Shown in pieces: positions 14,814-38,566 of a DNA stretch of 64,000 nt (its first letter is position 1; every line of letters starts with the position of its first letter). Below the pieces are notes generated by a model. That model made no database searches. It was given only the letters and a program-made list of their open reading frames with translations, and was not told the origin of the DNA. This DNA is from an uncultured bacterium (GTDB lineage: Bacteria > Oederibacteriota > JAAXVQ01 > JAUVAV01): contig CAVQBK010000002.1 in assembly GCA_963710755.1 (NCBI GenBank), forward strand, positions 1 through 64,000, in the 5' to 3' direction. Both the position numbers and the translations under genes were made by a program.

Positions 14814-15168
14814 TGGTGGAGGCGGCGGGAATCGAACCCGCGTCCGAAAGACACTCTACTGGCTCTTCTACATGCTTAGTCTGTCATTTGGATTCTCGCG
14901 CCCTTGGTCTCCAACAGACAGGATACCGCGGGCACCAGTTCAAGTGAATCTCGCCATCCGGCCCTTGAACACAACCGGACAGCCAACCTGCTGAGGTGAC
15001 GCCCTTTAACTGTTCACAGGTAAAACAATCAAGGACGAGCAGCTTACGCTGCTAGAGCGAATTCTTGTTCGCCAGTTATTGTTAAGTTCCATCATGTTTA
15101 ACGAGGTGAGATGAAGTCCTCGGCATGCCGAACCAGCCAACCATCCTCCGTCGAAACCGAGCGCCCCC
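14814..15168 (-). ncRNA. ssrA: tmRNA; tag peptide (A)GEQEFALAA* at 15044-15073
   Basis: 5' GGGGGCGC...TTCGAC; 3' GGACGCGGGTTCGATTCCCGCCGCCTCCACCA; resume context AATAACT-GGC; tag ending ALAA. Confidence 0.96.
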
Positions 15169-17858: not shown

Positions 17859-19154
17859 TTATTTCTTAAGACTTTTAATGGCGTCATGCAAGTTGGCAAA
17901 CAGCTGGTCCAGCTTGTCGATGGGCACTGCAGAAAAAGCCAGGCGGATCAGCCCCGACAAAACGATGACTCCGGTCTGGAAATCGGCCAGCAGCGTTTTC
18001 TGACCGCCTCGGCCTCGACCCCCAAGTGGCCGGACACACATGAAATAACCGGAATTAAAAGGCATGGGTTCAAAGGACTGCCTATATTCAGGATGAGCGC
18101 TAAGCAGCTCCTTGATCTTCAAATAGCGGTTTTTAAGCACCATGGTCTTGGCTTCTTTTTGCTCATTGTAGCGCTCGTCGTGGTAGGCTTTCAGCAACAA
18201 CTCCTGGCTCAGGCGGGAACTGTTGGAGATGTTGGCCCGCACCACACCGGCAGCCTTGGCCTCCAGGGCCTTGTACTGTTCTGGTGTGGCGTTCTTGATG
18301 CCAAAAGTAATGAAGCCCACGCGAAAGCCCCAGGCATAGTCTTCCTTGGTGGGGCCGTCCAGTTTGACAGCCAGAATGTTTTCATGCGCATCCGACAGGG
18401 GACCGAACAGGGATTCGCGGTAAATCCCTTCTTCATAGACCAAACCGAAATAAGCGTCATCAAGCAAGACCACGATGTTCTTGCCCTGTCCGGCTGCTTT
18501 GACAAGGATGTGTACAATGGCCTGTGCTTCCTTTTCCGTTATTGTATAGCCCGTGGGATTGTTGGGAAAATTGAGAAGCACAATTTTCTTGTCTCCCGGT
18601 TGGGCCAACTTTTCCTCCAAGCCGTTTATATTGAAGCCATTGTCTTGGAAGGTGGTATAAATATTGTTGGTGGCTCCGAAGCCTTCTCCGAAAATCAGAT
18701 CATAATTGTCCCAGTTCATATCAGGCATGATGATCGATTCCTGCTCATCAATAAACAAATAAGCTGCCACGCTCAGGGCATGAGTAAGCGCATTGGTGAC
18801 CACTGGTTCGCTGAAGGCTTTGCGCGCCAGGGAAGGATTTTTCTCCTCCAATTTGGCCTTCCAGGCCAAACGCAATGCCGGCAGTCCAAAGCTGGGAGCA
18901 TAAAGAAAAGCCGTGGAGGGCACTTCCACCATGTCTTCCAAACATTCCAGAGCCAAGGGGCTGCCGTCTTCTTCAAAAGCCGTACCGATAGTGGCATTAA
19001 TGGCCGCATTCTTGGCTTCCGCGGTTTGGCCCAAAATGCCCTGGGAAGGGAAATAGATGGACCGGCCTTTTTTGGAAAGTAGTGGCATGACCGCATTGCC
19101 GGGCGCGCTGATTTTTTCATTTAAAGCCTGTGCCAGCGGTGAAATGGCTTCCAT
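17859..19154 (-). CDS. Class I/II PLP-dependent aminotransferase
   Basis: INATIG, NFPNNPTG, DDAYFG, DGPTKEDYAWGFRVG, PFNSGYF. Confidence 0.9.
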   Translation of the reverse strand: MEAISPLAQALNEKISAPGNAVMPLLSKKGRSIYFPSQGILGQTAEAKNAAINATIGTAFEEDGSPLALECLEDMVEVPSTAFLYAPSFGLPALRLAWKAKLEEKNPSLARKAFSEPVVTNALTHALSVAAYLFIDEQESIIMPDMNWDNYDLIFGEGFGATNNIYTTFQDNGFNINGLEEKLAQPGDKKIVLLNFPNNPTGYTITEKEAQAIVHILVKAAGQGKNIVVLLDDAYFGLVYEEGIYRESLFGPLSDAHENILAVKLDGPTKEDYAWGFRVGFITFGIKNATPEQYKALEAKAAGVVRANISNSSRLSQELLLKAYHDERYNEQKEAKTMVLKNRYLKIKELLSAHPEYRQSFEPMPFNSGYFMCVRPLGGRGRGGQKTLLADFQTGVIVLSGLIRLAFSAVPIDKLDQLFANLHDAIKSLKK

Positions 19155-20336: not shown

Positions 20337-23300
20337 TCATGCCGAAGAAGATAAAGCGCGCAACCACATGCGACGTTCCTGCTTGGGCTGCAGGATGATT
20401 ACCCCTTCCAGATGATTCAATTTTCTGAGAATAACCTTTTGTACAGCGCTGCTCTTGGGTAAGGGCAGCTTAAACCGCTCGCCTTCAAACACAAGCACCA
20501 CGGTTGCATGCCCTGCTAACCTTAATTGGCTGAGCATCAACAGCCACAGCTTTATTTCTTTGGCTGAGCTATTTTTATTAATAGATTTCATCACAACTTG
20601 ATAACTCCGAGCCAGCAAATGCTGCTCTTTTCCAGGTGGAATATAACCTGCAGTAAAGACACCATCGCGCACCTGTTTGGCCATGTTCTGCAGCTGGTCT
20701 TGTCCACCAAGATGACTGAGGATAAGTTTCTGCCAATAGGTACTCAGACGAACCAACCCCAGGCGTCCGGCGGCCAGCCAAAGCCGGGTTTGGGCTGGAG
20801 AGGTGAACCGCTGGCGGTAGCTAAGGCCAATGCTGGCGATAATTACCCATTGCGCCAGCCACGCTTTCAGATGACCGGACAGTCCTTGGGGCTGTTCGGT
20901 CCAGCGCAGCACCTGACGAGGGAGGCAAATGGTGACGGAGAATTGATGGAGATATTGGCCGCGCAACAAATTAAGCAAATAACCCAATAAATGGGTATGT
21001 TCTTCCACCAGCAACCGGTAGTGTTGTGAGACCGTACTGCTGCCTTCGTTGCGTTCCCCCAGCGATGCGGCAAATACAGGGTCCTTCATAAAATAATGTT
21101 TTTTCATGAGTTTATTAAGCCAAACGTGGGTGCGCGGAGCTATCGAACCGATTGCAGTCATGGCAGGATCTTTTTCCAAATCTAAGGACAGGTCGATGAT
21201 GGTTAGATCCGGATGGTGGTTGATCCAGGCATGGATCCCATAGGATAGGGGCATCACCACCCCCAGCGGGGCCAAATGCGCGATGGTGATAAGTATAAAT
21301 ATCTTCCAGGCAGCGCTGCGATGACCTGGCGGTGTGCCTTTGTTGTAGTGACTGCCTGTAAACAGTGTCAGCCAGCCGGCCAGACTCACAGCTTTGGCCC
21401 AGGTGAAGACAGACGGATCCATCCAGGCGCGGGCAAGCGTTGAAATATTACCGGTCTCTCCTGCCATCAGCCAAGTACCGATCGCCAAGGCAGCCGTGAT
21501 CATCAGCCAAATATAATTATTTTCCAAACTCCAGGAATGCTGTTGATACTTTTCCCAAGCCTGAGCTCTTTCTGCCGGATTATTCCAATTCGTTTTTTTA
21601 ACGTTCGGGCTGAACAACGATAACATCATACGCCCCCATGCCGCCAGGTGGAAATGCAGGGCAAACCAGAAGTACGAGGCACCTACGGGTTTATTTGAGG
21701 GCAAGATAAGGTTTTCCAACAGTAACGTATTTTGGAGCACATAAGGATCCCTGTCATTGGGCTGGATAGGCTGTCGGGGATCATCCAGCAGAAATAACCC
21801 TTTGCCTCCGGAGCGATCCGTTCTATCCAGAAAAGGCAGCCATAAGGTGTCGACAGAATCAACATGATTAATTTTTAAATTCTTTATAACGGTGGTTTTA
21901 AGTTGAAGTGGCGACTCCAGATGGCCATGGCGGGTTAATAAAATAATAATTTCATTATCCCCTCTTTCAAAAGCAGCCGTCTGCTTTTTCGCGGTTAAAT
22001 CGATAATACGATAAGAGATTTTTTGAATGTCCAATTGCATGCATAAAAGTTCCAACAGCGACTTTTCGATCGGTTTGGACATACCGTATTTGATATGGTG
22101 CGCAAAGGCAGGTATAATAATGTCCCCTCGGCGTAAATGCATATCCTGCCACAGTGATTCGTGAGGGATATAAGCAGTGCCCAGAAATATCGTTCCATTT
22201 CGCAGCCACCGTTTTTTCAATTGCCAGCCCAGGGTTTTAGCCTGTGACGGCTGCTGTATCCGGGACAATCCCTTCCGTTCAAATCTGTTTTTTAATGCCA
22301 CGGTTTTCAGTTCTCCATTTTGGTCGGGAAAATACGCTGAAACGGGCAGGGAAGAATTGGCTACAATCACTTCTTCCAGGCCGGAGGAGAGAGTTGAGGT
22401 AAAGATCGCATGGTGAAAATGATTAAATAAAATCGCCAGTTTGACATCGTATTGAGAAAATAAAAAGCGCAAGTGGTTAAGATCACTACTATCTTTAATA
22501 TTGGTGACCACCAGACTCCAACCGCCATTGTTTTTTTGATGGCCATAAAAATGCATGCCTCTGGGATCTTTAAAATGCCGGGCGGTGCTGAAATCAAAAT
22601 CCTTCTGGATGGCTTTGGCCTCTTCCAGTGTGCCCATATGCCATGTGACCTTCCAGGGCGTACCCTTGGCGCTTTGCCCTTTTAAAAAAGGAGGGCTTAA
22701 CTCATTTAGGGCCGCCCGGCTATACTTGGTTTGCTCGCTCGCCCGTGGCACGCCGGCGACTTCGACATTCACTCGGGCATTATATTTTTCCAACATCCTG
22801 GCCACATCCTGAAATTGTCCATTGCCCAAGTGCGCCTCTGTCTGTAACCCTTCGCCTTGTTCCCATAACCAAGGATTGGCCAGTAGTTGGCGCAACCCTT
22901 TTTGCACGAAAAAGCCTGGATTGATGTAAGGAAAGGCTTCAACCAGTTGGTTATATATATAGCCAGGTGTTTGGGTATCTATGGGTTGACCCAAGGCAGT
23001 CTGACATATGCGGACTTCCTCTTCGATTTCAGGATGAAGGGTGTTCAACTCCCTTTTGGCATACTTGGGCAAGTTGTCGAGCTGCTCATATTTTTGTAAA
23101 GCACCCTCGTAATTCTTTAAATAAAGGCAAGCCCGTGCCGCCCACAACAGCCCTAGGGCGTTGAACCGGTCCAAAGCCAGCAGCCGTTGGGCCAGGTTCT
23201 GAACATCCGACCATTTGCCCACTTTGGCCTTACATTCCATAAGATCGAGCAGGGTTTCCTTGTCACGTGGATGAGCCTTTAGATTGTACGTCAAATAAAG

Positions 23301-26300
23301 AATTGCAAGAATATAGTGCTCCTGCTGCTGATAAATTCCGGCCAATAGTCTGCGCGCTTCAAAAGAGGTTGGATCGGCAACCAACAATTCATCTTCTAAA
23401 AAGTCCGTCAACTCGTCGATCTTGCCGTGATAAACATTGCCTCGTCGAAGGGCCCAGCCTTTGTTATCCTTTGCTGATTGGTCATCATTTGTTTTGATCC
23501 TATAATATATGTTATATAGTTTGCTTAGTACGGAAGAGCGTTTCACAAGGCCTTTTTGCAACAAGAAGGCCTTCCCCAAGGCCACCGCCTGGCGATGACC
23601 TTCCGCCGTATCGGTCATCATCAGGATATGCATTTTGGCAGCTACCGGCGCTCCTTCCAAGGGGTGGTCGCGGATGATATGGTCAAGAAAGGTCAGGTAC
23701 CTGTCGGTAAACCCTTCTTCATCCACTGACAATTCCTCATAGCGATTCCAAAACCAGGCATCATCGGGCCTTTTTTCCAGATAATGTTCTGCCAGCTCAA
23801 TAAATAGAGCACTATACTTCCGCTTAACCGTGTTATCTTGCGACGTCTGGATTACGCTGAAATAATTCCTGCCTAGTTGTTGCAACAGTGACGGATTGCC
23901 GGGAAATAACTCCAGCGCCTTTTTCAAAATAACAATGCTTTCCTCAATACCCGACATTTTGGCGATAATTAAATAATCACCAACAAAAGCAGCCTGTGTA
24001 AGCAATTCCTCACAAAATAATTTGAACGCTTTATCTCGACCCACATAGTTGCAAATTGAACCAAGCCGTGCCAGGGCAGACGCTCTTAACCGAAGGGTCA
24101 AACTTTTCTTATAGCAGTCAATGGCTTGATCAATATTGTTGGCAAGGCCTGCGTCATACCCCAAGGAATAATAATCGCCCAATTTCAATAGCGCAAAATC
24201 ATCATTAGGATTTCGCCGGAGGCGTTTGGCGTAGTAATGATGCATAAACTCAGGTTTTTTATTAAATTCGGGCTCATAATCAGACCACGTTTCATACGCA
24301 TCCATTATTCCCGTCGGAAGATACCAAAACACTTGAATCAAAGAATGTTTGGAATCCTTCGCATTTATTTTCCATGTTTCAGAAAAAGCATCTTTCTTCT
24401 TCACCTGGATCTCATCTTTGGTAAAGGGCTCACTTTGATAATTGCTCCAGGTCACATCCATGGTCACCATTTTCCCGCTGGGCAAGGTTAAGAGGTTGGC
24501 AGCATGGCCAATATCTTGCGGCCCAAAATCCTGTTCCGCTTTCTCCACACTCGTCATGGCTGCCTTGAGCCCCAGGCGTCCGGCCAGCACGGTAAAAGCC
24601 GAGGCATAGCCTACGCAGTTGGCCCGGCTATCGCCAAGCATATAACTCAACTTAAAATTGCCTTTACTATATTCCGGATAATGTTCCCGTATAATTCGGC
24701 CCAATGCCCGGCCCGCCCGTAAGTGCAGCTGGTCCAGCTTGACCTTATCCCCATGACATGTATGCTCTAGCGTTTTGAGGCGATGACGCGCCCTGCGGGT
24801 CCAGGATAATTTGCGTTCCTTAGTCCCGGAAGTATCGGCCTGTTCATGCCTTAGAAAAGGATCTGTCCAGCTTGCAGCATCCTCGATGAAAGCTTGTATC
24901 TGTTGGTGCAACAAAATTTCGCCAAGCAAATGCTGGCTACTGCGGGTAAGACCTTCAATGATTTCTGTGCTAAAGGTTTTTAAATCAGAACGTTTTAATG
25001 TTGCGTTTGTCTTGTCCCAACCGTTGCCCAAAGTAATTCCACCCAACTGTTGGGACAGCTTCTGCAAATCAGCCTGCAGCCTGGCTGTACCCCTCCAATC
25101 CAACGGCATTTGTATCCATTGAGGTGCTTTGCGATAGAAGCGGTTTAAAAGGTCCTGAAAAACACGGCCGGCCGGCGTCTGCGGTAACTTTATTTTGTAT
25201 TCATTCATCAACCATGCCATCAATGGCATCAAATCAGCTAAAGAAAAGCTTCGCGTGATCGAAATGACGCTCACTTTTCCTTCATCATTTTTTTTAATTT
25301 CAAACGGACCCTTTGATGATTCCAAGGAGTCTTTGATCGTTAATTTTATGTCTCCAAACAAAGCCAGACGATAGGCAAGCTCGTCCAACGCATATTCATC
25401 CCTTTGCTGCAATGGGGTCTGGAGCATTTCATCCATAAAATACTTGTCCGGTCTTTGCTTGACCATTGGCCTACCCAGCCAATTTGCGGTCATCCTGCTT
25501 ATTTTAGTTTCCCATGGCAGCCACCTTTTAAACAAGGGATAGGCGGATTGGGAGAGAATAGCCGAAAGAGCCGGTTTGTTTTTAAAGCTTTCCCCGACTT
25601 TCCGGCCAGCAGCAATCGGCCGGCCTTTGTAGGTGACGGACGCCGTTTGATCTTTTGTTGCATGATCTTGTTGATCAACGTCAGATGATGCTTGTTCCCG
25701 CCCTTCCGCTTTGACTTCAACTTGCGTCAATTGCAGCATTATCTCCTGGTGGGGTAAACAGGCCAAAGGAATGCCAAAAACACTTTGCCAGTGCGTTCGC
25801 TCCAGCTCACGACGAACATCGGCAATGGTCGCGCGATCGTCAATCTTGTCCAACAAAGGACTTAAGTCGGCCGCAGCCCGAGCCCCGGCGGCTTGCTGGT
25901 CGAAACCAGGTGCGAACCATTTATACATATCGGAGCTGATGGCGACTTCAGCACCAGGGCTTGAAGAAGCAATTTGAGCCAATAATTTTATAAATTTTAC
26001 GTAACGCTTGAATTTGTCCGGTTTTTGCAACTCCAGTTTGGCAAGATTGTCCGTCAGGAAAGCAAGGTGGTTTGTTAAATCCAACTTGTCCTGTAAAACA
26101 CGGCAGAGCTGATCTTTTTCCGAACCAAATATCTGAGGAACTCGGATATCCCATAGTATTTTTTTCTCATCAGGGGTCAAAGGCAAGGACTTGGGGTTGA
26201 TCCCAAGATCAGCCAAGGCTAAAATGCGAAAGTGGGCAAAATCCTCTTCGATTTGCGTAATATGTTTTTTGAAGGCCAACATGTTCCGAAGTTGTTGCAG

Positions 26301-29300
26301 ATTCAAAATATTGAAATCCGGCTTGGCCGCCGCCGCATCCAGAAAATTATGAAATAATAACAAAATAAGTGGAATGTCCTTTTGAGGTTTGTGCCCTGCC
26401 ATGACTTTTTTCAAAACACGAAGTCTGGTTTCGCCGAGGCGCACCATGCCCACCACAGTATGGCTGCCGACAAGGCGCACAATCCCCTCTCTCATTTCCG
26501 GGCTGACTTTTCCTTTTAAAAATTCATCACTAAAAGCAGCACCACGTGATTCGTGACCTAAGGGTTTGGTATCCGTTAAAAAACCAGTGTCGTGAAGACG
26601 TTGCGCCCATACGAAAACTTTTCCCCAATAATTGGCGGCGTGGAAATATTGTTCTACGGTTAAAGAGGTCAATTCCTTAGGCGGATGCTTAAGGGTGGCC
26701 TTTAAAAACTCATGGACTAATTTCAAAGCCAAACGATCATATTCCGCTTTTTCAGCAGCTGTGGCATTCGGGAGGGCATTTGAAAAATGGGCCGCATCAA
26801 GCTCAAGGGCTGCGTCCAAGTTATGATCCACGCGATCCAGGTGGGCCACTCGATCGGGGGCTGTACCCCTCAACCACCCTGTTTCCGGCAGGGATGAGAC
26901 CAAGCCCGGTTTCGGAACTTCTGGAATATGCCGAATGAACTCCCGGTTGATAATTCGATGAACACTATAGGACAGTGGCACGGTTACCCAAAGCGGGGCT
27001 AGGTGGGCAAGAACCAATAGTCCAAATATTTCAAGAGCCGCCATCACATTCTCTGACGGTGTATCTTCAATTGGTTCCCCTTTATTAAACAATTTACCCA
27101 GCATGGCTTGCAGCCATTTAATATTTAAATGACTGCCTGCAAAAAACACCAACCAACTACCGAGACTGATGGTCTTGACCCAACCCAAGTTTTCAAAACC
27201 GGTCAATTGATTGCCCATGGAAAGCAGCACGCTGTAATCCCCTGTGACCACTCCCCAAACCGAGCCGGCGATGGCGGTCAGACCCAGGATGGTCCCCACC
27301 AGCCCCCAGATGTAATGGTTCTCAATCCAATGAGCCGCGGCTTGATATTCTTCCCAGGTCAGCACCGCCCGATGCCGTGTCCGGCGCAGGGCATTATGGA
27401 GGGTGAACCAAAGGCGAGAGGTGCCTTTGGCGGAGAAAACGCCTTGAGTAACGTCCTTAAAAATTGCCAATCCGTTCTCTCTTATCCCAGTAAACAACTG
27501 CCTTCCTTCCCCATCCTCGCATGCAGCGATCAGGCGATCCTGAATTTCTCCTCCATTTTTTTCCATTATGGTATCAATGGGAATCCAAACAAATTTATCC
27601 AATTCATGGTTTGGTTGCAGAGCAGGTTCCTGGTCATTATCCAAAACAACGATAACGCAACTACTTGCCACCTTATTGACTTCATCAGTAAAAACCGGCA
27701 AATACCCTTGGTGTTTTTCAACCCGCAATCCCACTTCTTCCTCCAATTCGCGCAAGGAAGTGTCACCGGGTGTTTCCCCCGAACCATCCTTTTCTTGTCT
27801 ACCACCTGGGAATGTGAAGTAGCCGGTCCATTGATTCGCGCCGGACCCTCTCCGGCAGAACAACAAATGATATTTACCATTGATTCTTTTTATGACCATC
27901 GTCAATCCAGCCAGCGTATAACCCGGATAAACCTTTTCCATTTCCTCATATGTTCTATTTTGTTCAAGCACTTCCCCCAATTGTGTTCGGAGCACTTCGG
28001 GTGAAACATCCTTTTCAAATATCTTTATTTGCCGGTCATCGGAACCATCCATTTTTACATAAAGTTCCCGCAACCGATCCATAACCCCTTGATCTCCGCG
28101 GGAAGCTTGCCGGTTTTCTCTTGGTTTACCAGTAAGAATAAAAGACAAATGGTTGACAACATCAGAAGATGGAATTTCGATGTGGTAATGGGCTAGCCAC
28201 TGGGGCAGGAAAATATTTAGGCCTTCAAGTTTACGCAAAAATCGGCTTTCCCGCGTTTCTTGTGCTTCATATTCTTGCCGCAAGGCAACCAGGGCATTCA
28301 CATTCGCCTGCGGGAAGGGTGCTAAAATTTTTCGAATCGATGCCTCATCCTGCATGCGCTCCGGAAACATGGCGGTCAGCCGCCCTGCCCAGGCCATTTT
28401 AACCAAACGAAAAAGATCCAGGTCGGACGGCGCCAGCAGTAAAGCTAAATAAGACAGACGCCAGGTTTCGTCCGCCAAGGAAGGCTTTCCATCCGGCCGT
28501 TCCTTGGCCTCGAATAATTTGAGAATAGCCGCCATTTGGGGATCTGAATCCAATAAGCCGAGAAAACGGTCCATGCCGTTCTGTGGCAGAGTGATTTCAG
28601 CAAAAGTTTGGTGTTCTGAATGATCTTTTTCCGGATATTTATTCATATAAAAACGATGTTCCAAATAAACATCCAAAACGTCATACCCTTTGATACTCTC
28701 CATGGCATAAGCCAGATTCTGCCAAAAAGCCAACTTCGTTTTTTCTGGTTTTCCACTATGCCGCCCTTCTTTTGGCATCAATTTGGCAAGAAGGTTAGGA
28801 AAGGGTGCAAAGAGTCTGGCTAAAACAACAGCTTCCACCCGGCGTTTTTGTTCTTTTTCCAATTGATCATGTGGTGTAGGGTCTCCCATAAGGACTTCAG
28901 GATCATCATGCACAATCAGCTTGTAAAAATCTTCAGCTTGAGAATTTTGTTCCAGCAGCAAATAAAGCAGGCCCATACCCCAAGTATGGCCGGCCACGGT
29001 TTCTCCATTTTTCTCAAACAACCCGTTTTTCTTCCAGCCTTCGTGATCCCGCTGCGGCAAAGACCAGCCGTAGAGAAGAGCTTCCATGGCCTCATCGGAA
29101 AGGCCAAATTCGGACTTTACTTGGGCAAGATTCTCACGTGTAGAAGATTCAGAAAATTGCCTCGGCTGTTGATTGCTATTGGCATGCCATTGAGTTTCAG
29201 AGGGAGCCAGTAACCAGTTCAAAAACAACGGCAACCCTTTTTTCAATGGAGTAAGCTGTTCTGCCCAGTTCCTACCCAAAAGTCCGGTCAGGACAGGGTC

Positions 29301-32300
29301 ATCATCTCTATTGTTATAAATTTTAGTATTTGGTGTTTGACTGCCCAAGGCATCAACAATACCCTGCGGATCATCAAAATAACGGACCAAGTATTTATCC
29401 AGGCTCAGATGAGAGTGTGCTGCTGCAGCCCGGGACATCTCCAAAGTCAATGTATTAAAGGTATGTACGAGACTTAAAGGGCTGAAATTAAAAATAACCG
29501 GAATAGTCTGGTCGCGCCCATGCAGAACAGCGTCGGCTAATTGGTATAAAACTTTTTGTATGTCAGCGCCATAAACAAAGGCCCTGCCTTCGGTCTTTCC
29601 TGCTGCTTGTCCGGACTGATTTTTGATTTCCTTCGGCACGCCTTCGGGGGTATTCCACGCCGGATACTCGTCAGGTTTCGCCAGAGCTAAAAGTTGTTTG
29701 GGAATCCGTTTGTTGATACCTAAAAGCTGACCGGCATCAACGGTAGCTCCGGGACCGTATTCCGTTTCAAAACGCACCATATGGACCCTAAAACCGGATG
29801 AGGTTGAAGAGGCCGGTGCCATTTGGAGAAGTAAATATTCCATAAGCAGTTTACTTGCCAGGTAAACATCTGCTTGCTTTCCTTTTTCGTTCTTCGGCCA
29901 GGGTAAGGTTTCAAGCTGCCTTTGAATAGCATCCAACAATGGTCTATAGTTGTCCGCTGTTAAAGCGGGTTGATGCTGCTTAATTTTTTCGTCAATTGCC
30001 GCTTTGGCATTTTCCAGCCATCGGGCAACTTCATTGCTAACAGCCAAGGGAAACCCTGCCTGCGCATTTTTCTGCTGCTCGCCATCCAACGGCCCGTCAT
30101 AAAATTCATTATACACGCCAATCGTTGACGGTATGATCAATGGCTTGTTTTGCCGTTGGCATTCGCGCGCCAGGAGGTAGGGTATGATGGCATTAAGAAG
30201 CAGTAATTCGTTTTTTTGCGCCGGGCTAAAATCCCTTGAGACTGTAATGGCGGCCAAATTAAATACCAGGTTGCTTTTCTTGACCAATTCTTTAATGGCC
30301 TCAGGTTCTGTTAGAAGGTTTCTTTCTATTAGGGTGATACGATCTTTCAGGTTTGGGGTTAAAAGGCCTATCCGCATTTTTTTGACTTTATCCGGATGCC
30401 GTTGTGTCAGGGCCACGATGCCAACATCATCAGTTTCACCCAGTCGGCGGGAAAGTTGGCTGGCCGCTGTTCCCGAGGCGCCCAAAATGCCTATGTGGTA
30501 TTTGAGCTTAAGAGCAGGCGTGTTTGCTGCAGGGCTCGCTCCGAATTTCCGTGACTTTACCTGAGTGCCAAAGTGATAAACCAAATACAATCCCAAAATA
30601 ATAACTAAGCCCAAACCACCAGGTATTATCCAAGAGGACAGACTATGCGCCCAGCCGCTCAAACCGCTTTCTTTTCCGGCGGCCCAGGCAAGACCAGGAA
30701 CCACAAGCAGACCTGCCTTGACCATCGCAGGCCACTGCTCTTGGAATGCTTTGGTCAAGCTCCCTAAAAAAGACGCCGGTCGTTTGACTTGCGCCAGCGC
30801 CTGCTTGACGCTTTGGGGGCTGCCGTAAATCGTTACCTGCATTTCCCCAAAGTTACTACCGGCGCGCACTTCAAATTGTGTTTCTCCCAGACTGGGCAGT
30901 GCCATGCCCTTTTGGGCCACCATCACCAGCAGTTCGCTTCCTGAGCCGGTTGTCACCGAATAGGCCATGCAGCCTTCGGGCAGGCCGGTTTTAGTGCGCT
31001 CCTCAAATTCAGTGCCTGTCAATGGGCTGATGAATTTCAGACCCTCCTGGTGTTGAGCCAGCCAATGGGCCACCTCATGTTTTAAAGATAATGGAACAGA
31101 AGGTAAAACAGCATCAGCGGGCACGCCACAGGCGACTTGCACGCTTTTCGTAAACCCTCGTCCTGCCTGGGGCCACGAGGGCGGGGCGAGCATGGTCTGG
31201 TTTTTGGCCAATAGTTTTTCAATTGGTAATTGTTTGCCTTGCAGAATGGAGAAATAAGGATTGACCTGACCGAGTTTGGTCAGCCGCGGTTTGACGGATA
31301 TATAGCTAAGTCCTAACCGCTCAAGCTCTTCCAGCAAAGCCTTGGCATGAAAGCCGCCGGTGATCACCACAGCCAAATCCTGGTGACGGGCATTCATGGC
31401 GTGGATCACATTGGCCGCAAAGGAGCGGCTGCGCCGGTCGGCCAAATGGTAAAAGGTTTCCGCCTTTTTCAAATAACCTTCCAGGCCTTGCAAGTCGCCT
31501 GCAAAAGACATCGTGTCCTTTGGGCCGCCCGCCTGGTGGATAAACTCGATAAAGGCCGGGATCTGATACTGGTCACGGTGTTGGCGGTAGCGTTGCAGCT
31601 CTTCCTGAGTGGCCGAGAGGTTAAGCATTTTTTCAATCAGGTCAAGACGGTCAAGCCAATGGTCCAAGGTGCGCTGCTTTTCACTGGTATAAAGCTTTTG
31701 CCGCAGGGCATTTTCAAGACGATCCAGTTCCGCAAACAATTGGTCCAGATCGCTTGGAACCGGCTGAAACCTTGCGCCTGAAGCAAGGTACTGGTTAAGT
31801 TCAGAATAAGGGGCCATGGATTGGCCCAGCCGGCTGGCCCATTGCCCCAATTGCCTCGCATAGGTTGTCAAATCAAGCCTGCCTTCTTGATAAGCGCTTC
31901 GCAGCCGGTCAAAAACACTTAGTTCCGGGTTATAGGTGGCCGCTTTAAGCTGGTCAAGCATACCGCGCAAATCCTGGCAATAACCCTGACTCTCGGCATT
32001 CAATAGTCCCCGGGCCAATTTCAGGCTTTGCTGATATTCCCCGGCATTTTCAAGGCCTACCAGATCAACCGGCCGGGCGCCGTTGGCGGCGCCGTACTCC
32101 GCCCCGGTTAATTTTCCCTGGCTTAAAAAATAATCACTTACCGATTGTCGGATTTGCGGGATGGGAAAAGTCCGTAAAACACTTACATCCACCTTACCAT
32201 GAGCCCCTTCTTCACCCACCAGAGAAAGGCCGTAATGTTGAGCCAGGTGGCTGATGATGGCGGCAATATGATGTTGCACTTCCTCATTGCAATGCAGGTC

Positions 32301-32516
32301 TTGAATAAGCACAATAGTTTTCGCACCCGCAGCATGACTGCTTGCAATGCTTCCCCATTTGTCCGGCAGGGCCAGTTTTTTACCTTTAAGATAAAAAGAG
32401 GGTGTGGTGAGCAAACCTGAGGCATAAGTCATGCTTTCAAAGGCCCACATGGTCTGAGGCCAGAGCAGGCATAAGGACAGCAACACGGCAGTGATGGTTT
32501 GGGCTTTTTTATTCAT
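20337..32516 (-). CDS. Giant (~4060 aa) secreted/membrane multidomain protein: conserved N-terminal domain, SDR, HD, NUDIX, HD, transglutaminase-like, TPR and two CPBP-like TM modules
   Basis: Uninterrupted 12.2-kb ORF; signal peptide; motifs IQDLHCN/EGA/GGFH, GASG...YLASK, H...HD, GGRQE...RELEEEVG, NCVG...GHA...D, TPR-like helices. Confidence 0.9.
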   Translation of the reverse strand: MNKKAQTITAVLLSLCLLWPQTMWAFESMTYASGLLTTPSFYLKGKKLALPDKWGSIASSHAAGAKTIVLIQDLHCNEEVQHHIAAIISHLAQHYGLSLVGEEGAHGKVDVSVLRTFPIPQIRQSVSDYFLSQGKLTGAEYGAANGARPVDLVGLENAGEYQQSLKLARGLLNAESQGYCQDLRGMLDQLKAATYNPELSVFDRLRSAYQEGRLDLTTYARQLGQWASRLGQSMAPYSELNQYLASGARFQPVPSDLDQLFAELDRLENALRQKLYTSEKQRTLDHWLDRLDLIEKMLNLSATQEELQRYRQHRDQYQIPAFIEFIHQAGGPKDTMSFAGDLQGLEGYLKKAETFYHLADRRSRSFAANVIHAMNARHQDLAVVITGGFHAKALLEELERLGLSYISVKPRLTKLGQVNPYFSILQGKQLPIEKLLAKNQTMLAPPSWPQAGRGFTKSVQVACGVPADAVLPSVPLSLKHEVAHWLAQHQEGLKFISPLTGTEFEERTKTGLPEGCMAYSVTTGSGSELLVMVAQKGMALPSLGETQFEVRAGSNFGEMQVTIYGSPQSVKQALAQVKRPASFLGSLTKAFQEQWPAMVKAGLLVVPGLAWAAGKESGLSGWAHSLSSWIIPGGLGLVIILGLYLVYHFGTQVKSRKFGASPAANTPALKLKYHIGILGASGTAASQLSRRLGETDDVGIVALTQRHPDKVKKMRIGLLTPNLKDRITLIERNLLTEPEAIKELVKKSNLVFNLAAITVSRDFSPAQKNELLLLNAIIPYLLARECQRQNKPLIIPSTIGVYNEFYDGPLDGEQQKNAQAGFPLAVSNEVARWLENAKAAIDEKIKQHQPALTADNYRPLLDAIQRQLETLPWPKNEKGKQADVYLASKLLMEYLLLQMAPASSTSSGFRVHMVRFETEYGPGATVDAGQLLGINKRIPKQLLALAKPDEYPAWNTPEGVPKEIKNQSGQAAGKTEGRAFVYGADIQKVLYQLADAVLHGRDQTIPVIFNFSPLSLVHTFNTLTLEMSRAAAAHSHLSLDKYLVRYFDDPQGIVDALGSQTPNTKIYNNRDDDPVLTGLLGRNWAEQLTPLKKGLPLFLNWLLAPSETQWHANSNQQPRQFSESSTRENLAQVKSEFGLSDEAMEALLYGWSLPQRDHEGWKKNGLFEKNGETVAGHTWGMGLLYLLLEQNSQAEDFYKLIVHDDPEVLMGDPTPHDQLEKEQKRRVEAVVLARLFAPFPNLLAKLMPKEGRHSGKPEKTKLAFWQNLAYAMESIKGYDVLDVYLEHRFYMNKYPEKDHSEHQTFAEITLPQNGMDRFLGLLDSDPQMAAILKLFEAKERPDGKPSLADETWRLSYLALLLAPSDLDLFRLVKMAWAGRLTAMFPERMQDEASIRKILAPFPQANVNALVALRQEYEAQETRESRFLRKLEGLNIFLPQWLAHYHIEIPSSDVVNHLSFILTGKPRENRQASRGDQGVMDRLRELYVKMDGSDDRQIKIFEKDVSPEVLRTQLGEVLEQNRTYEEMEKVYPGYTLAGLTMVIKRINGKYHLLFCRRGSGANQWTGYFTFPGGRQEKDGSGETPGDTSLRELEEEVGLRVEKHQGYLPVFTDEVNKVASSCVIVVLDNDQEPALQPNHELDKFVWIPIDTIMEKNGGEIQDRLIAACEDGEGRQLFTGIRENGLAIFKDVTQGVFSAKGTSRLWFTLHNALRRTRHRAVLTWEEYQAAAHWIENHYIWGLVGTILGLTAIAGSVWGVVTGDYSVLLSMGNQLTGFENLGWVKTISLGSWLVFFAGSHLNIKWLQAMLGKLFNKGEPIEDTPSENVMAALEIFGLLVLAHLAPLWVTVPLSYSVHRIINREFIRHIPEVPKPGLVSSLPETGWLRGTAPDRVAHLDRVDHNLDAALELDAAHFSNALPNATAAEKAEYDRLALKLVHEFLKATLKHPPKELTSLTVEQYFHAANYWGKVFVWAQRLHDTGFLTDTKPLGHESRGAAFSDEFLKGKVSPEMREGIVRLVGSHTVVGMVRLGETRLRVLKKVMAGHKPQKDIPLILLLFHNFLDAAAAKPDFNILNLQQLRNMLAFKKHITQIEEDFAHFRILALADLGINPKSLPLTPDEKKILWDIRVPQIFGSEKDQLCRVLQDKLDLTNHLAFLTDNLAKLELQKPDKFKRYVKFIKLLAQIASSSPGAEVAISSDMYKWFAPGFDQQAAGARAAADLSPLLDKIDDRATIADVRRELERTHWQSVFGIPLACLPHQEIMLQLTQVEVKAEGREQASSDVDQQDHATKDQTASVTYKGRPIAAGRKVGESFKNKPALSAILSQSAYPLFKRWLPWETKISRMTANWLGRPMVKQRPDKYFMDEMLQTPLQQRDEYALDELAYRLALFGDIKLTIKDSLESSKGPFEIKKNDEGKVSVISITRSFSLADLMPLMAWLMNEYKIKLPQTPAGRVFQDLLNRFYRKAPQWIQMPLDWRGTARLQADLQKLSQQLGGITLGNGWDKTNATLKRSDLKTFSTEIIEGLTRSSQHLLGEILLHQQIQAFIEDAASWTDPFLRHEQADTSGTKERKLSWTRRARHRLKTLEHTCHGDKVKLDQLHLRAGRALGRIIREHYPEYSKGNFKLSYMLGDSRANCVGYASAFTVLAGRLGLKAAMTSVEKAEQDFGPQDIGHAANLLTLPSGKMVTMDVTWSNYQSEPFTKDEIQVKKKDAFSETWKINAKDSKHSLIQVFWYLPTGIMDAYETWSDYEPEFNKKPEFMHHYYAKRLRRNPNDDFALLKLGDYYSLGYDAGLANNIDQAIDCYKKSLTLRLRASALARLGSICNYVGRDKAFKLFCEELLTQAAFVGDYLIIAKMSGIEESIVILKKALELFPGNPSLLQQLGRNYFSVIQTSQDNTVKRKYSALFIELAEHYLEKRPDDAWFWNRYEELSVDEEGFTDRYLTFLDHIIRDHPLEGAPVAAKMHILMMTDTAEGHRQAVALGKAFLLQKGLVKRSSVLSKLYNIYYRIKTNDDQSAKDNKGWALRRGNVYHGKIDELTDFLEDELLVADPTSFEARRLLAGIYQQQEHYILAILYLTYNLKAHPRDKETLLDLMECKAKVGKWSDVQNLAQRLLALDRFNALGLLWAARACLYLKNYEGALQKYEQLDNLPKYAKRELNTLHPEIEEEVRICQTALGQPIDTQTPGYIYNQLVEAFPYINPGFFVQKGLRQLLANPWLWEQGEGLQTEAHLGNGQFQDVARMLEKYNARVNVEVAGVPRASEQTKYSRAALNELSPPFLKGQSAKGTPWKVTWHMGTLEEAKAIQKDFDFSTARHFKDPRGMHFYGHQKNNGGWSLVVTNIKDSSDLNHLRFLFSQYDVKLAILFNHFHHAIFTSTLSSGLEEVIVANSSLPVSAYFPDQNGELKTVALKNRFERKGLSRIQQPSQAKTLGWQLKKRWLRNGTIFLGTAYIPHESLWQDMHLRRGDIIIPAFAHHIKYGMSKPIEKSLLELLCMQLDIQKISYRIIDLTAKKQTAAFERGDNEIIILLTRHGHLESPLQLKTTVIKNLKINHVDSVDTLWLPFLDRTDRSGGKGLFLLDDPRQPIQPNDRDPYVLQNTLLLENLILPSNKPVGASYFWFALHFHLAAWGRMMLSLFSPNVKKTNWNNPAERAQAWEKYQQHSWSLENNYIWLMITAALAIGTWLMAGETGNISTLARAWMDPSVFTWAKAVSLAGWLTLFTGSHYNKGTPPGHRSAAWKIFILITIAHLAPLGVVMPLSYGIHAWINHHPDLTIIDLSLDLEKDPAMTAIGSIAPRTHVWLNKLMKKHYFMKDPVFAASLGERNEGSSTVSQHYRLLVEEHTHLLGYLLNLLRGQYLHQFSVTICLPRQVLRWTEQPQGLSGHLKAWLAQWVIIASIGLSYRQRFTSPAQTRLWLAAGRLGLVRLSTYWQKLILSHLGGQDQLQNMAKQVRDGVFTAGYIPPGKEQHLLARSYQVVMKSINKNSSAKEIKLWLLMLSQLRLAGHATVVLVFEGERFKLPLPKSSAVQKVILRKLNHLEGVIILQPKQERRMWLRALSSSA

Positions 32517-32744
32517 AACACTCAACTTCAGTAGAATGGGTTTTGCGGTTTCCTAGCGTTGCTGGCTAAGTATATCAATCCCTGAAAAAGGGATCAATTT
32601 CCTGGTTATTAATTACTGAAGGTTTTGGTTTGTTAAACCGGCAAGTGTTTCATTTGACAGCATGGCAGGGGTTGAATTTTTTCCTGCCAGGCAGGGGAGT
32701 GTTGCCATAAAGAGCATGCTTCAGGGCATTTTAAAGGGTTAAGC

Positions 32745-33485
32745 TTACATTTTCATTTTTTTAAAGACATTTTCCGGAATGGATTTTACCGCCACCATGA
32801 TCCATCGCCAGAACCACGGAATATAGGCTTCGTTCTTTTTCCGGTGTACGGCCTTGAGCAGGCCCTTGGCAAAGGTTTCGGGCGAGGCCATGAGCAGGCC
32901 CTGCTTAAGATGACTGGTCATGGGTGTATGCACCAGACCTGGCTTCACGGTCATCACATGCACGCCGTAGTGGGCCAAGCGGTTGCGCAAACCTTGCAAG
33001 TAGGTGGAAAAGGCCGATTTGGAAGACCCATAAATATAATTACTCTGCCGTCCCCGGTCACCGGCCACGGACGAGACCCCCACGATCAAACCTTTTTTCT
33101 GTTTCTCCATATGGTTGGCCACTTGTTCCAAAATGCTGGCGGCACCCACATAATTAACGGTCATAGTTTCCCGGGACAGTTCAAATTGCTGCTGCGAGGC
33201 TTTTTGGTCTTTCATGGTACCGAAAAACAAATACACTTCATCCAGCTCTGGATAGCGCTCGGTTAAGGTCTGCACAAATGCTGCATGGGTTTCCGTTTTT
33301 TTGGCATCAAAGGGCATCACCACTGGTTTGGCGGCCTGGGTGCGCAGTTCAATATCAGCCGCGTTTTTTTCCAATTCATTGGGATGGCGACCGGCCAGGA
33401 TCAATTGATGCTCCGGTTTGGCCACCAGCATGGCCCAGGCTTTGGCCATGGCCGAATTAGCCCCTAAAATTAAAATGGTTTTCAT
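32745..33485 (-). CDS. SDR oxidoreductase, DprE2-like
   Basis: ILGANSAMA, SSVAGDRGRQSNYIYGSSK, VKPGLVHTPMT, IPENVFK. Confidence 0.85.
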   Translation of the reverse strand: MKTILILGANSAMAKAWAMLVAKPEHQLILAGRHPNELEKNAADIELRTQAAKPVVMPFDAKKTETHAAFVQTLTERYPELDEVYLFFGTMKDQKASQQQFELSRETMTVNYVGAASILEQVANHMEKQKKGLIVGVSSVAGDRGRQSNYIYGSSKSAFSTYLQGLRNRLAHYGVHVMTVKPGLVHTPMTSHLKQGLLMASPETFAKGLLKAVHRKKNEAYIPWFWRWIMVAVKSIPENVFKKMKM

Positions 33486-33504
33486 AGTTATTTCCTTGGT
33501 TTGT

Positions 33505-34893
33505 TTACTCATGATCCTCCACCAGTCCCAGACGCCGGCCCTGATCAGAGGCAAACACCTGCTGCGGATCGACCTGGGCTTTCACGGCTTTCCATTCCTT
33601 CAGCCTGGGGTACATGGCTTCAAAGGTCGTGCGTTGCATACGGCTGTCCTTGGCCAGATACAACCGGCCGCCGTAATTTAAAACCAATTCGTCCCATTTG
33701 TCCATCTCTTTTAAGATAGCGCCCGATCCCACGGGAAAATCAAGGGCAATAAAATAACCGGGCGTGGGAAAAGAAAGGGGCGCTTTTTCGGGTATGGGGC
33801 CGAATTTTTTCAGCACGGCCAGAAAAGACGCCCGTCCGCTTTTGGCAATGGCTTCCAGCACTTTTTTAATGCCTTCAAAGCCATGCTCGGGTGGGATTAA
33901 AAACTGGTACTGGACCAGACCGGGTTTGCCGTAAATACGGTTCCAGCGTAAGATCGCATCCAGTGGATAAAAGAAGGTATCAATATCTACCAGGTGATTG
34001 CTGTGGCGGGGATGCTTGCCGTAAATCACGGCATTGAAGGCCGCCACGGAAAGCGGGTTGAGGCTCCAACTGGGAAAATCCAAGGGCACCATCACCTTGG
34101 GCTTGGCCGTTAACCGCAAAGGATCGGCCTGTGTCGCCTTACTTTTCAAATCTGCTTTCTTGGCAAAACCGCCGCGCATCATGATGCTGCGGCCCAGGTG
34201 GCGGCCTTTGGCCAGGCAATCGATCCAGGACACGGTGAGCGGTGTGGATTCTGATTCCTCGTACAATTGAAAAATATGCTCCAGATCCCTGGCTTTTATT
34301 CCCTCGTAATGGAGCAGACTGGTTTCAATAGGCATCAGTCTCAATTCCACGCTGAGGATAAGGCCGGTTAGGCCCATGCCGCCCACGGTGGCCCAGAACA
34401 GGTCAGGCCGTTCGTTGGGCGAACAGGTCACTTCCGCGCCATCAGCCAGAAGCATATGCAGGCGTTCAATAAAATGACCGATGCTCAGCTTGCTCTTGCC
34501 GTGCACATCGCAAGCCACGCACCCGCCCAAAGTGGGATACTTGGTGCCCGGCGTGACCGGCAAAAACCAGCCCTTGGGCACGAAAACCCGGATGATCTCT
34601 TCCAGGGTGACGCCCGCTTCCGCATGCACCACGCCCGTGGTGTTGTCAAAAGCTAGTAGCCGGTTGGCGGCCCGGAAATCCAAAACCAGGTTGTCTTGAT
34701 TGAGCGCCGAATCCCCATAAGCCCGGCCTGCACCCCGGCCCAGGAGGCTAAAGTTCTGACGGCATTGTAAAAAATCTGATGCAGATGCAGCACTGTGAAG
34801 CTTAATCAAGTGGGCCTGACTCAGCGGATAGCGGCCCCATCCGCCCATCACCCTTAAAGGCGGCCATTCATACTCATTTTCCCCAGGTACCAT
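33505..34893 (-). CDS. FAD-binding oxidoreductase, DprE1-like
   Basis: GWGR, RGAGRAYGD, PVTPGT..TLGG..ACDVHGK, FFYPLD, SFLAVLK, GGRLYLAKD. Confidence 0.88.
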   Translation of the reverse strand: MVPGENEYEWPPLRVMGGWGRYPLSQAHLIKLHSAASASDFLQCRQNFSLLGRGAGRAYGDSALNQDNLVLDFRAANRLLAFDNTTGVVHAEAGVTLEEIIRVFVPKGWFLPVTPGTKYPTLGGCVACDVHGKSKLSIGHFIERLHMLLADGAEVTCSPNERPDLFWATVGGMGLTGLILSVELRLMPIETSLLHYEGIKARDLEHIFQLYEESESTPLTVSWIDCLAKGRHLGRSIMMRGGFAKKADLKSKATQADPLRLTAKPKVMVPLDFPSWSLNPLSVAAFNAVIYGKHPRHSNHLVDIDTFFYPLDAILRWNRIYGKPGLVQYQFLIPPEHGFEGIKKVLEAIAKSGRASFLAVLKKFGPIPEKAPLSFPTPGYFIALDFPVGSGAILKEMDKWDELVLNYGGRLYLAKDSRMQRTTFEAMYPRLKEWKAVKAQVDPQQVFASDQGRRLGLVEDHE

Positions 34894-34960
34894 TATTCTT
34901 CTCCTGATGTCGATAGAGTGTGCAGCTTTAAAACAGTTTGGCCCCATGGACCAACCGCTA

Positions 34961-35431
34961 TCAATACCGCTGGCGCATCTGACGGTCGGTTTCGCGCTTG
35001 ATGTCCCGTTCTTTTAAGGCTTCTTTCTTGTCAAAGGTATGTTTGCCTTTGGCCAACCCCAGTTCCACCTTCACCCTGCGGCCTTTGAGGTAGATTGAAA
35101 GCGGCACCAAGGTCAGGCCCTTCTGAGTCAGTTTGCCTTCCAGTTTCATGATTTCCCGTTTATGTAACAACAGCTGCCTGGGCCTCACCGGATCGGGATT
35201 TTCACGGTTACCCTGCGGATACGGAGAAATATGTAGATTAAGCAAACGCACCCGGCCCTGTTTGACCTGGGCGTAACTATCCTGCAGATTGGCCTGGCCG
35301 GCGCGCAGGGACTTGACCTCACAGCCCACCAGTTCAATACCAGCTTCCAGTCTTTCCAGAATCAAATATTCATGCAGGGCCCTGCGGTTGCTTACCAGAC
35401 GCTTAAAGTCTTCTTTTTCGGCAGTGCTCAC
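34961..35431 (-). CDS. smpB: SsrA-binding protein
   Basis: NRRALHEY, EAGIEL.G.EVKSLR, LLLHKREI, GK..FDKKE. Confidence 0.97.
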   Translation of the reverse strand: MSTAEKEDFKRLVSNRRALHEYLILERLEAGIELVGCEVKSLRAGQANLQDSYAQVKQGRVRLLNLHISPYPQGNRENPDPVRPRQLLLHKREIMKLEGKLTQKGLTLVPLSIYLKGRRVKVELGLAKGKHTFDKKEALKERDIKRETDRQMRQRY

Positions 35432-38555: not shown

Positions 38556-38566
38556 GCTTGCCTCCC

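Follow-up and report, generated by a model that had tools for sequence, protein, structure and literature searches.

To our knowledge, giant multi-enzyme proteins rich in transmembrane (TM) segments have been described almost only from the Omnitrophota. Passages of two preprints describe them, including the "Archaeovorins" and other long proteins with a signal peptide plus TM segments or with TM segments only (bioRxiv 10.1101/2023.11.21.568195 and 10.64898/2026.06.07.730766). As described in those passages, most Archaeovorins carry divergent SecA_DEAD or SecA preprotein-binding domains (the giant-gene preprint), and a large part of the long proteins is read as anchored and facing the cytoplasm (the separate preprint of the same pair). 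Here we analyze a giant open reading frame (ORF) from a different uncultured lineage. It lies within a 64,000-nucleotide stretch of DNA (the window; positions 1 to 64,000 of contig CAVQBK010000002.1, assembly GCA_963710755.1), which belongs to contig C2 of a 3,441,520-base, 98%-complete source genome (G000). Its product starts with a conserved N-terminal "head" that stands at the start of 31 ORFs in this genome (619 to 9,465 amino acids [aa] long, 80,561 aa in sum, or 7.0% of the DNA), all of which share the signal peptide and an N-terminal domain of ~440 aa.

With confidence slightly above even, we favor the reading that this protein is a head-out, enzymes-in membrane megaprotein from a lineage-specific, heavily expanded family that shuffles its cassettes. 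In the proposed arrangement, a Sec-type signal peptide would export a conserved head of ~600 aa with a core like those of TIKI and erythromycin esterase (Ere) proteins, the first TM segment (TM1) would halt transfer after the head, and the remaining ~3,400 residues would lie at the cytoplasmic face, held to the membrane at two further points by copies of a helical module that is neutral with respect to topology. The cassettes so anchored, namely, a short-chain dehydrogenase/reductase (SDR)-like domain, HD_3, NUDIX, a probable second HD domain, a transglutaminase-like core, and tetratricopeptide repeats (TPRs), would then act at the inner membrane face, near their nucleotide and nucleotide-sugar substrates and cofactors.

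The giant ORF is a single intact frame

The 12.2-kb frame is uninterrupted on the minus strand over window positions 20337 to 32525 and comprises 4,062 codons when counted from a TTG at 32525, the start from which module residues are numbered here. From the ATG at 32516 it encodes 4,059 aa, the same product as in public gene calls, in agreement with an earlier reading of the window made from its sequence (the original prediction). Its G+C content (0.46 to 0.52) is similar to that of the flanking DNA. An assembly chimera, a possibility that the original prediction had raised, is very unlikely because three lines of evidence agree. A second public assembly (a 19.8-kb Logan contig) matches the giant protein without gaps at 4057/4059 residues; contigs of run X1 tile 23 of 30 bins of the ORF, all 24 at ≥99% identity, although the contigs of runs X1 and X2 are short, bridge little, and leave some parts uncovered (e.g., 29374 to 30207); and G023, which is the one other genome in the genus, has an open orthologous frame of 4,084 codons whose first ~1,400 residues are 87 to 91% identical.

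The same observations, together with the head-first giant layout that a profile search found in thousands of relatives, leave very little room for the alternative that adjacent genes were fused through assembly or frameshift error or that the ORF is a decaying pseudogene. What speaks for such an artifact is that two family members each overlap a following long ORF, hinting at frameshifts somewhere in the family: C3:409620-412832 (1,070 aa) precedes C3:412774-423666 (3,630 aa), and C13:372660-383030 (3,456 aa) precedes C13:366376-372735 (2,119 aa). The second ORFs of both pairs share cargo with other family members, and they could reflect frameshifts, split genes, or sequencing errors, in which case the affected copies may be longer or frameshifted.

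The features of the ORF are as follows.

20337 to 32516, minus strand: giant ORF, 4,059 aa from the ATG at 32516
32439 to 32516, minus strand: putative signal peptide (MNKK, a 12-residue hydrophobic core, then P...WA/F with putative cleavage at the slash; Kyte-Doolittle [KD] peak of 1.55 at aa 11 to 29; read by eye)
31176 to 32438, minus strand: conserved family N-terminal domain (aa ~30 to 450), with a predicted TIKI/erythromycin-esterase/ChaN-like fold and a long helical insert
30651 to 31175, minus strand: extension of that domain (aa 451 to 625), common to some paralogs only and without a family match
30576 to 30644, minus strand: TM1 (aa 628 to 650; KD of 2.06), with a K/R-rich stretch after it
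29226 to 30512, minus strand: putative Rossmann/extended-SDR-like cassette (sub-threshold Pfam matches plus motifs)
28197 to 29036, minus strand: HD_3 phosphohydrolase domain (PF13023, above cut-off)
27522 to 27896, minus strand: NUDIX hydrolase domain (aa 1544 to 1668; PF00293)
26928 to 27425, minus strand: TM-repeat module A (aa 1701 to 1866), membrane helices in which E, H, H, Y, and H do not vary
26196 to 26708, minus strand: candidate second HD domain (H...LHDTG...H...D, with the LHDTG motif at 1976 to 1981)
24456 to 24677, minus strand: putative transglutaminase/papain-like Cys-His-Asp core (aa 2617 to 2690; sub-threshold)
23088 to 24173, minus strand: TPR array (aa 2785 to 3146; TPR_17 at 33.9, TPR_19 at 29.9, and TPR_14 at 28.0 bits, each above cut-off)
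21216 to 21563, minus strand: TM-repeat module B (aa 3655 to 3770)
20340 to 21185, minus strand: basic C-terminal tail (aa 3781 to 4062; pI 10.3; 37 K/R versus 17 D/E)

All modules named in the original prediction were present, with coordinates that agreed to within a few tens of bases. The HD_3, NUDIX, TPR, TM-repeat, and basic-tail assignments are solid, whereas those of the SDR, the transglutaminase-like core, and the second HD domain combine a sub-threshold profile match, or no match, with motifs. The catalytic residues, which the original prediction had suggested checking for degeneration, lie in motifs that appear intact on inspection, and enzymatic activity of the tethered modules is predicted from their sequences.

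The HD_3 match (58.7 bits versus a cut-off of 22.5) falls in two stretches, residues 1164 to 1246 and 1392 to 1443, which correspond to profile positions 12 to 97 and 81 to 132 and look like a single domain with an insert of ~145 aa; the metal-ligand motifs GHTWG and VHDD are present both here and in the G023 orthologue. The NUDIX domain scored 51.7 bits when segment 1544 to 1668 was scanned (cut-off, 21.1) and 45.6 bits within the whole protein. The canonical Nudix box is G-x5-E-x7-REUxEExGU, of which the E-x7-RELEEEVGL part is intact; its G and E are separated by x9, 4 residues more than in the canonical box. In the SDR region, both RmlD_sub_bind (23.0 bits; cut-off, 27) and NAD_binding_4 (19.3 bits; cut-off, 20.1) stayed below threshold. 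The hallmarks of SDR enzymes are a GxxGxxG dinucleotide motif and an S/T...YxxxK catalytic set; the region carries GILGASG at 679, PST at 797 to 799, and YLASK at 888.

A Pfam scan of residues 1870 to 2320 at E≤0.5 gave no match to the second HD domain. Its first ESM-Atlas neighbor is an HD cluster (score, 0.95) in which only 13% of the members carry PF01966, and an HD domain at residues ~1890 to 2110 is plausible; the same cassette (HD2) recurs in paralog C13:199991-207004. The transglutaminase-like core reached 19.0 bits against PF01841, below the cut-off of 23, which its counterpart in paralog C13:520355-530593 passes at 39.9 bits. A Cys/His/Asp pattern occurs in order (NCVGYA, GHAANL, and MDVT), the first two elements being kept in the sequence of G023. 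The basic tail is weakly similar to paralog C5:106014-114461. About 1,400 residues (451 to 625, 2301 to 2580, 3161 to 3640, and the tail) had no Pfam family match, and 3161 to 3640 had no usable ESM-Atlas hit either. An NCBIfam scan returned nothing beyond weak Nudix/MutT and SDR-type similarity, and the sole result of the PADLOC defense-system scan was a match of the generic Nudix type to PDC-S07 (25.6 bits).

The head has a predicted TIKI/Ere-like fold

In an alignment of the 31 heads (numbered from window positions 31146 to 32489; two copies are without part of the helical insert), H66, Q72, E94, R353, GG.H381, and an NPY motif are invariant, with H66, E94, R353, and H381 found in 31/31. 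An AlphaFold2 model built on this alignment (pLDDT, 83.7) consists of an alpha/beta core broken by a helical insert of ~200 residues. The top solved Foldseek match to the model was EreC (E = 0.013; probability, 0.96), followed by the Ere-like protein BcR135. VIA, an aligner independent of Foldseek, ranked EreC (Z = 9.6; root mean square deviation, 3.6; 159 aligned residues), HopBA1 (8.8), 2qgm (8.8), BcR135 (8.4), and ChaN (8.1) in five of the six top places among 48,161 chains, and placed the C-terminal region of the Pasteurella toxin at 5.8; the head's Z scores lie just above the aligner's stated noise level.

Passages of PMC6254334 include PMT, HopBA1, Bcr135, and ChaN in the TIKI superfamily, state that erythromycin esterases share the catalytic mechanism of the fold, and describe its active site as a conserved His-Glu pair (His-85/Glu-113 in Bcr135) with further His/Glu residues and a conserved basic residue. 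The head resembles EreC (6xcq), Bcr135 (2rad/3b55), ChaN (2g5g), and HopBA1 (5t09) in its predicted core; its H66 and E94 are 28 residues apart, the same spacing as in the Bcr135 pair, and it has a second His at the end of the GG.H strand and an invariant Arg. Its layout ahead of TM1 can also be likened to that of TIKI and PrgY, in which an ectodomain precedes a membrane anchor. It differs in having a helical insert, in being fused to thousands of cargo residues, and in its lack of detectable sequence or profile similarity to the superfamily. No Pfam or NCBIfam model matched the head (the 31 heads were scanned in Pfam at E≤10), and PF01963, PF05139, and PF04187 were not among the 25 listed of the 50 families that the heads matched at that threshold. 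A PDB profile search gave chance Rossmann-like hits only (E of ~1), and membership of TraB_PrgY_gumN by sequence was rejected after hhalign comparison with 8 sequences of that family (probability, 0.2).

Taken together, the structural comparisons support with moderate confidence a TIKI/erythromycin-esterase/ChaN superfamily fold. Given this fold and the invariant His...Glu...Arg...His set, the head is probably a hydrolase that acts outside the cytoplasmic membrane. By sequence it belongs to no described family, and its classification as a TIKI/Ere-like hydrolase is at the level of predicted fold.

TM1 and a repeated membrane module would keep the enzymes on the cytoplasmic side

Across the 31 paralogs, the N-terminal consensus L.P...WAF has small residues at positions -3 and -1 (mostly S/T/G/A/V and A/S/T, respectively). 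This pattern fits a cleaved Sec signal, with predicted cleavage leaving the head outside. TM1 comprises 23 uncharged residues followed by HFGTQVKSRKFGASPAANTPALKLKYH, and the next 27 residues hold 5 K/R and no D/E. The first TM segment after a signal peptide is necessarily a stop-transfer anchor; TM1 would thus cross from outside to inside, and the SDR, HD_3, and NUDIX modules, representatives of enzyme classes that normally work in the cytoplasm, most likely face the cytoplasm. The original prediction had placed these enzymes behind a signal peptide and suggested from this that they are delivered into another cell. TM1 separates the exported head from them, and the module list of that prediction itself already set a TM segment ahead of the enzymes.

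The two TM modules further along the chain match each other with i-Evalues of 2e-10 and 1e-11 and are true repeats. In all 8 copies of an alignment of the module, E36, H100, H142, P145, Y154, and H157 are invariant, a pattern more like that of an intramembrane metal-binding or catalytic site than of a simple anchor; the module has no family match. The N-terminal flank and loop 2 are K/R-rich, and loop 1 is nearly K/R-free. The last hydrophobic stretch is 29 residues long and contains an invariant AH.xP; the AlphaFold2 model splits it into two helices, and its closest structural matches in this low-confidence model are helix-loop-helix hairpins, so that the module may, with low confidence, cross the membrane an even number of times. 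HD2 follows one TM module in the giant protein and two in G023, and since an HD2 domain can hardly work on opposite sides in sister species, the module would be neutral with respect to side. This comparison suggests that the C-terminal half is also cytoplasmic.

The invariant E36, H100, H142, Y154, and H157 could also fit a polyprotein made for the cell's own use and cut at or near the TM modules, with the Cys-His-Asp core or the His/Glu membrane module (as an intramembrane protease) releasing the enzymes or leaving them separately anchored. A Cys-His-Asp core is indeed present, the TM modules lie at cassette boundaries and vary in number (2 here and 3 in G023), and self-cleavage is raised in passages of the Omnitrophota giant-gene preprint for the proteins treated there. 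The membrane module itself gives this idea less encouragement: a fold search with it found nothing above a Z of 5.9, and it occurs in 3/15 genomes of the order and is therefore not a general processing device of the family. Motifs recognizable by eye (E..., FxxxH, and HxxxN-like) had suggested a CPBP/Rce1-like identity, which was rejected: PF02517 at E≤10 matched 8 places in the genome, including six ordinary genes, and none at C2:21156-21608 or C2:26886-27428, where the two modules lie. We regard self-processing of this kind as improbable.

Cargo is rearranged between relatives and differs among paralogs

The favored head-out, enzymes-in arrangement is set within a family whose cargo is in flux. 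Compared with the giant protein, the G023 orthologue has a head of 87% identity and an HD_3-NUDIX-TM module block of 91% identity but lacks the SDR cassette (residues 681 to 1091); it then places an X-transglutaminase-TPR-Y block (53%) ahead of the second TM module and HD2 (74%) and ends in a third TM module and a tail (49%). A contig from a related salt-marsh population (run X2; one low-depth contig) joins window position 29122 to 30668, apparently skipping TM1 and the SDR cassette. Among the 15 genomes of the order, the HD_3-NUDIX cassette is found in 2. On account of these rearrangements and the patchy presence of both this cassette and the TM module, sequence comparison indicates that cargo turns over below the genus level while the head is kept, and that the family diversifies as cassettes are gained, lost, and reordered; the breakpoints fall in or close to TM modules.

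Comparison of the 31 paralogs, as the original prediction had proposed, showed cargo that differs almost wholly from one ORF to the next. Of the 65,371 post-head residues, just 7,306 (11%) could be aligned to another paralog (BLASTP, E≤1e-6), and the parts of the giant protein held in common are the two TM modules and HD2. Pfam domains found in the paralogs comprise PPDK_N/PEP-utilizers (4 ORFs), cytidylate kinase, GGDEF, GNAT, NTP_transferase, TreT/GT1, and GH77, as well as alpha-amylase, glucoamylase-like, M50-like, low-molecular-weight (LMW) phosphatase, HD_5, Transglut_core, and nSTAND3-like P-loop domains; 15 of the 31 scanned sequences (30 paralogs, the 9,465-aa one in two pieces) had no Pfam match at E≤1e-4. 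Most of these cargo enzymes need ATP, GTP, acetyl-CoA, or nucleoside diphosphate sugars. Because the paralogs carry many carbohydrate and nucleotide-sugar enzymes, our guess is that the family serves membrane-proximal nucleotide, nucleotide-sugar, or glycan metabolism.

A conserved N terminus joined to hypervariable cargo is also seen in MARTX and polymorphic toxins, and the original prediction had proposed delivery into another cell. In such a reading, the conserved head would traffic and the variable toxic enzymes would act in that cell. The mosaic identity to the G023 orthologue and the reordered cassettes recall recombining toxin loci, nucleotide-hydrolyzing modules with intact motifs could serve as toxins, the papain/transglutaminase-like core could free them, two paralogs have no stop-transfer TM segment behind the exported head, and two of the fold matches, HopBA1 and the Pasteurella toxin region, come from delivered proteins. 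Against this stand TM1 with its positive C-terminal flank between head and enzymes, and the 6 to 7 hydrophobic segments of the giant protein (38 in one paralog). No RTX repeats or CPD, TPS, or PAAR/Rhs-type delivery domains were found in Pfam scans (E≤1 for the giant protein and E≤1e-4 for the paralogs). No partner gene recurs within ±6 kb of the 31 paralogs, the largest flank cluster touching 6/31 and consisting of response-regulator receiver proteins, a very common family; no secretion or immunity-like genes were seen in these flanks. The cargo belongs mostly to carbohydrate and nucleotide metabolism rather than to known toxin folds, and the family takes up 5 to 7% of every genome in the order. 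Nothing found in the analysis supports delivery into another cell, and we consider an effector role unlikely; it keeps some weight because the cargo is hypervariable and recombining.

A version that joins cleavage to these features can also be put forward, if with little confidence: a TIKI-headed, cassette-shuffling polyprotein would be cut either by the papain-like core or at the His/Glu membrane modules, setting free modules that would serve as rapidly re-assortable private enzymes or as effectors in a contacted cell. If true, 5 to 7% of the genomes of a whole uncultured order would be a recombining effector or polyprotein arsenal built on an undescribed exported hydrolase head.

The layout of an exported head, a TM segment, and enzymes inside is also that of a one-component membrane receptor, which raises the prospect of a giant transmembrane sensor whose head and helical insert bind or cleave an external cue and control the cytoplasmic enzymes. 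Ectodomains of the PrgY and TIKI types have peptide signals outside the cell as their targets, paralogs carry GGDEF, HD_5, or LMW phosphatase domains, and the insert has weak Foldseek matches to the sensor bundles of TorS and McpZ (E of 0.2 to 0.4). However, helical-bundle matches of such strength are common by chance, most cargo is metabolic (amylase, GH77, TreT, PPDK, and Cmk), and the head is the conserved part, while sensors usually vary in the sensing domain. We therefore hold a sensory function to be doubtful.

Several observations weigh against the head-out, enzymes-in arrangement that we favor. The link of the head to TIKI and Ere proteins is one of fold, to which Pfam, PDB-sequence, and hhalign comparisons lend no support, and the AlphaFold2 model of the TM module is poor (pLDDT, 66). 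Sides were assigned from KD peaks, charge counts, and reasoning, and the charges flanking the first post-head TM segment in the 26 ORFs that have one (41 K/R on the N side versus 54 on the C side) are not decisive. Paralogs C13:520355-530593 and C13:199991-207004 have no convincing TM segment for >1,000 residues past the head, so their cargo could be exported together with it, and the latter paralog shares HD2 with the giant protein. Finally, the embedded enzymes are, by sequence, extra and divergent copies that imply no housekeeping role: the standalone Cmk of the genome scores 239.6 bits versus 67 for the embedded copy, and a separate 1,010-aa PPDK-like gene is present. That the embedded enzymes are the sole copies in the genome is ruled out by these standalone genes.

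The head family was found throughout one order of uncultured bacteria

Two of the 31 head copies, on the small contigs C11 and C12, resemble the copy on C4 and share a flanking gene with it, and they may therefore be assembly variants. A head profile detected the family in 14/14 other genomes of the order (10/10 in family f1 and 4/4 in family f2), with many copies per genome and frames of up to 13,678 aa, and gave a single match, a 58-residue fragment, in the other 84 genomes of the phylum. A near-complete relative of the same family but a sister genus (G031; 7 contigs) has fewer but much longer copies, with ~10 head-bearing frames that include ones of 12,551, 12,450, 10,037, 8,807, and 6,158 aa; the number of genes over which the cassettes are distributed seems to differ between genera.

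A scan of 185,579 species genomes with a single peptide pattern, which detects fairly close relatives only, yielded 276 confirmed loci. The 80 that were kept come from metagenome-assembled genomes titled candidate division FCPU426, Candidatus Firestonebacteria, Candidatus Goldiibacteriota, or "uncultured bacterium." Among reference genomes, the head was found in a single order, whose members bear the first three of these labels. Among 1.84 billion representative proteins, the head profile matched 9,743 at E≤1e-3, and 6,212 still matched at E≤1e-30. For the best 150 of the 9,743, the head always starts within the first ~120 residues, and the proteins reach 7,768 aa. The few matched members that carry a source name are all called "hypothetical protein."

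G000 also holds 19 further ORFs of ≥1,800 aa (57,661 aa) without the head, e.g., C4:21455-45832, C1:80-20494, C4:231035-241777, and C4:194150-207051. Among them are an 8,125-aa protein with a signal peptide and TM segments, an ORF of 6,804 aa that lies at the start of a contig, and a protein with YD/Rhs-like repeats, as well as two neighboring ORFs that, judged from their N-terminal sequences, are polyketide-synthase-like. All ORFs of ≥1,800 aa in the genome amount to 127,933 aa, or ~11% of it.

Genes around the giant ORF

The downstream neighbors on the same strand encode a class I methyltransferase, an aminotransferase, PurE, and a GTP-type phosphoenolpyruvate carboxykinase, and upstream, likewise on that strand, come genes for a short-chain dehydrogenase, an FAD-linked oxidase, SmpB, and RNase R. 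The first two of these (window 32745 to 34947, minus strand) lie immediately upstream of the giant gene and overlap each other; their products are a short-chain dehydrogenase of 269 aa and an FAD_binding_4/ALO-type oxidase of 480 aa, an arrangement that may be likened to the DprE1/DprE2 epimerase pair, which acts in the synthesis of cell-envelope arabinan. The trans-translation genes are all in the window: a transfer-messenger RNA gene at 14814 to 15168 (tag GEQEFALAA) and smpB at 34961 to 35431, which overlaps the RNase R gene at 35428 to 37644.

Elsewhere in the window, positions 10092 to 11072 encode a 326-aa protein with an IS200-like Y1 transposase domain, adjoining a DUF6880 protein at 11130 to 12482. 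A 398-aa ORF at 17886 to 19082 (plus strand) lies antisense along the full aminotransferase gene at 17859 to 19154 (minus strand); it is probably a chance shadow ORF. PRC-barrel-domain proteins at 37851 to 38570 and 39255 to 39971 bracket an unannotated 255-aa ORF near a tRNA-Leu(CAG) gene.

Comparison with known giant proteins

We found no paper on such giant proteins in our literature searches on FCPU426, Firestonebacteria, and Goldbacteria, although supplements may list some. For FCPU426, passages of PMC10434106 contained nothing on giant proteins, and those of PMC12057145 mention Firestonebacteria only within a list. FCPU426, Firestonebacteria, and Goldbacteria are likewise absent from the main text of the Omnitrophota giant-gene preprint, whose supplements may list such genes.

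Several properties of the family make it tractable. Its ~440-aa exported head, a sharply defined signature for which neither Pfam nor NCBIfam has a model and which merits one, provides a means of gathering members from 9,743 clusters and comparing them; ~30 paralogs per genome carry nearly non-overlapping cargo; and gain, loss, and reordering of cassettes are visible inside one genus. The family is thus a natural experiment on how giant proteins are built and a concrete route to the question of which side their enzymes face.

Of the systems already described, MARTX and the polymorphic toxins (Rhs/CDI) share with the family a conserved N-terminal part, internal or C-terminal enzyme modules that can be exchanged, allelic recombination, and a module resembling a cysteine protease. 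The family differs from them in having a stop-transfer TM segment, internal membrane modules, and metabolic-type cargo, in the absence of RTX, CPD, TPS, PAAR, or Rhs elements from our Pfam scans, and in having neither type I secretion nor immunity genes nearby.

The best reading of the comparison is that the giant protein is of the same kind as the Omnitrophota giants, its closest described counterparts. The original prediction had drawn this parallel, which is apt as an analogy, although the relatives found here are labeled FCPU426, Firestonebacteria, or Goldiibacteriota rather than Omnitrophota. In addition to lineage, the family differs in length (0.6 to 9.5 kaa here and ≤13.7 kaa in relatives, shorter than the Omnitrophota giants), in its far higher copy number (~30 per genome), and in its defining TIKI/Ere-like head, which goes unmentioned in the passages of those preprints. 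A SecA_DEAD-like domain is absent from 31/31 members in Pfam scans (E≤1 for the giant protein and E≤1e-4 for the other 30), and, unlike those of the Archaeovorins, the genes flanking the giant gene include no type II secretion or pilus genes. Compared with the passages of those preprints, the two groups nevertheless have in common single ORFs of great length, carried by small genomes from uncultured, PVC-neighboring lineages, a signal peptide and many TM helices interleaved with metabolic enzyme domains, and divergent versions of enzymes that normally work in the cytoplasm (among them pyruvate-phosphate-dikinase, glycosyltransferase, GNAT, and glycolytic or sugar-metabolism domains), as well as the same uncertainty over the sidedness of these enzymes. 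The same design principle is now seen in a different uncultured lineage.

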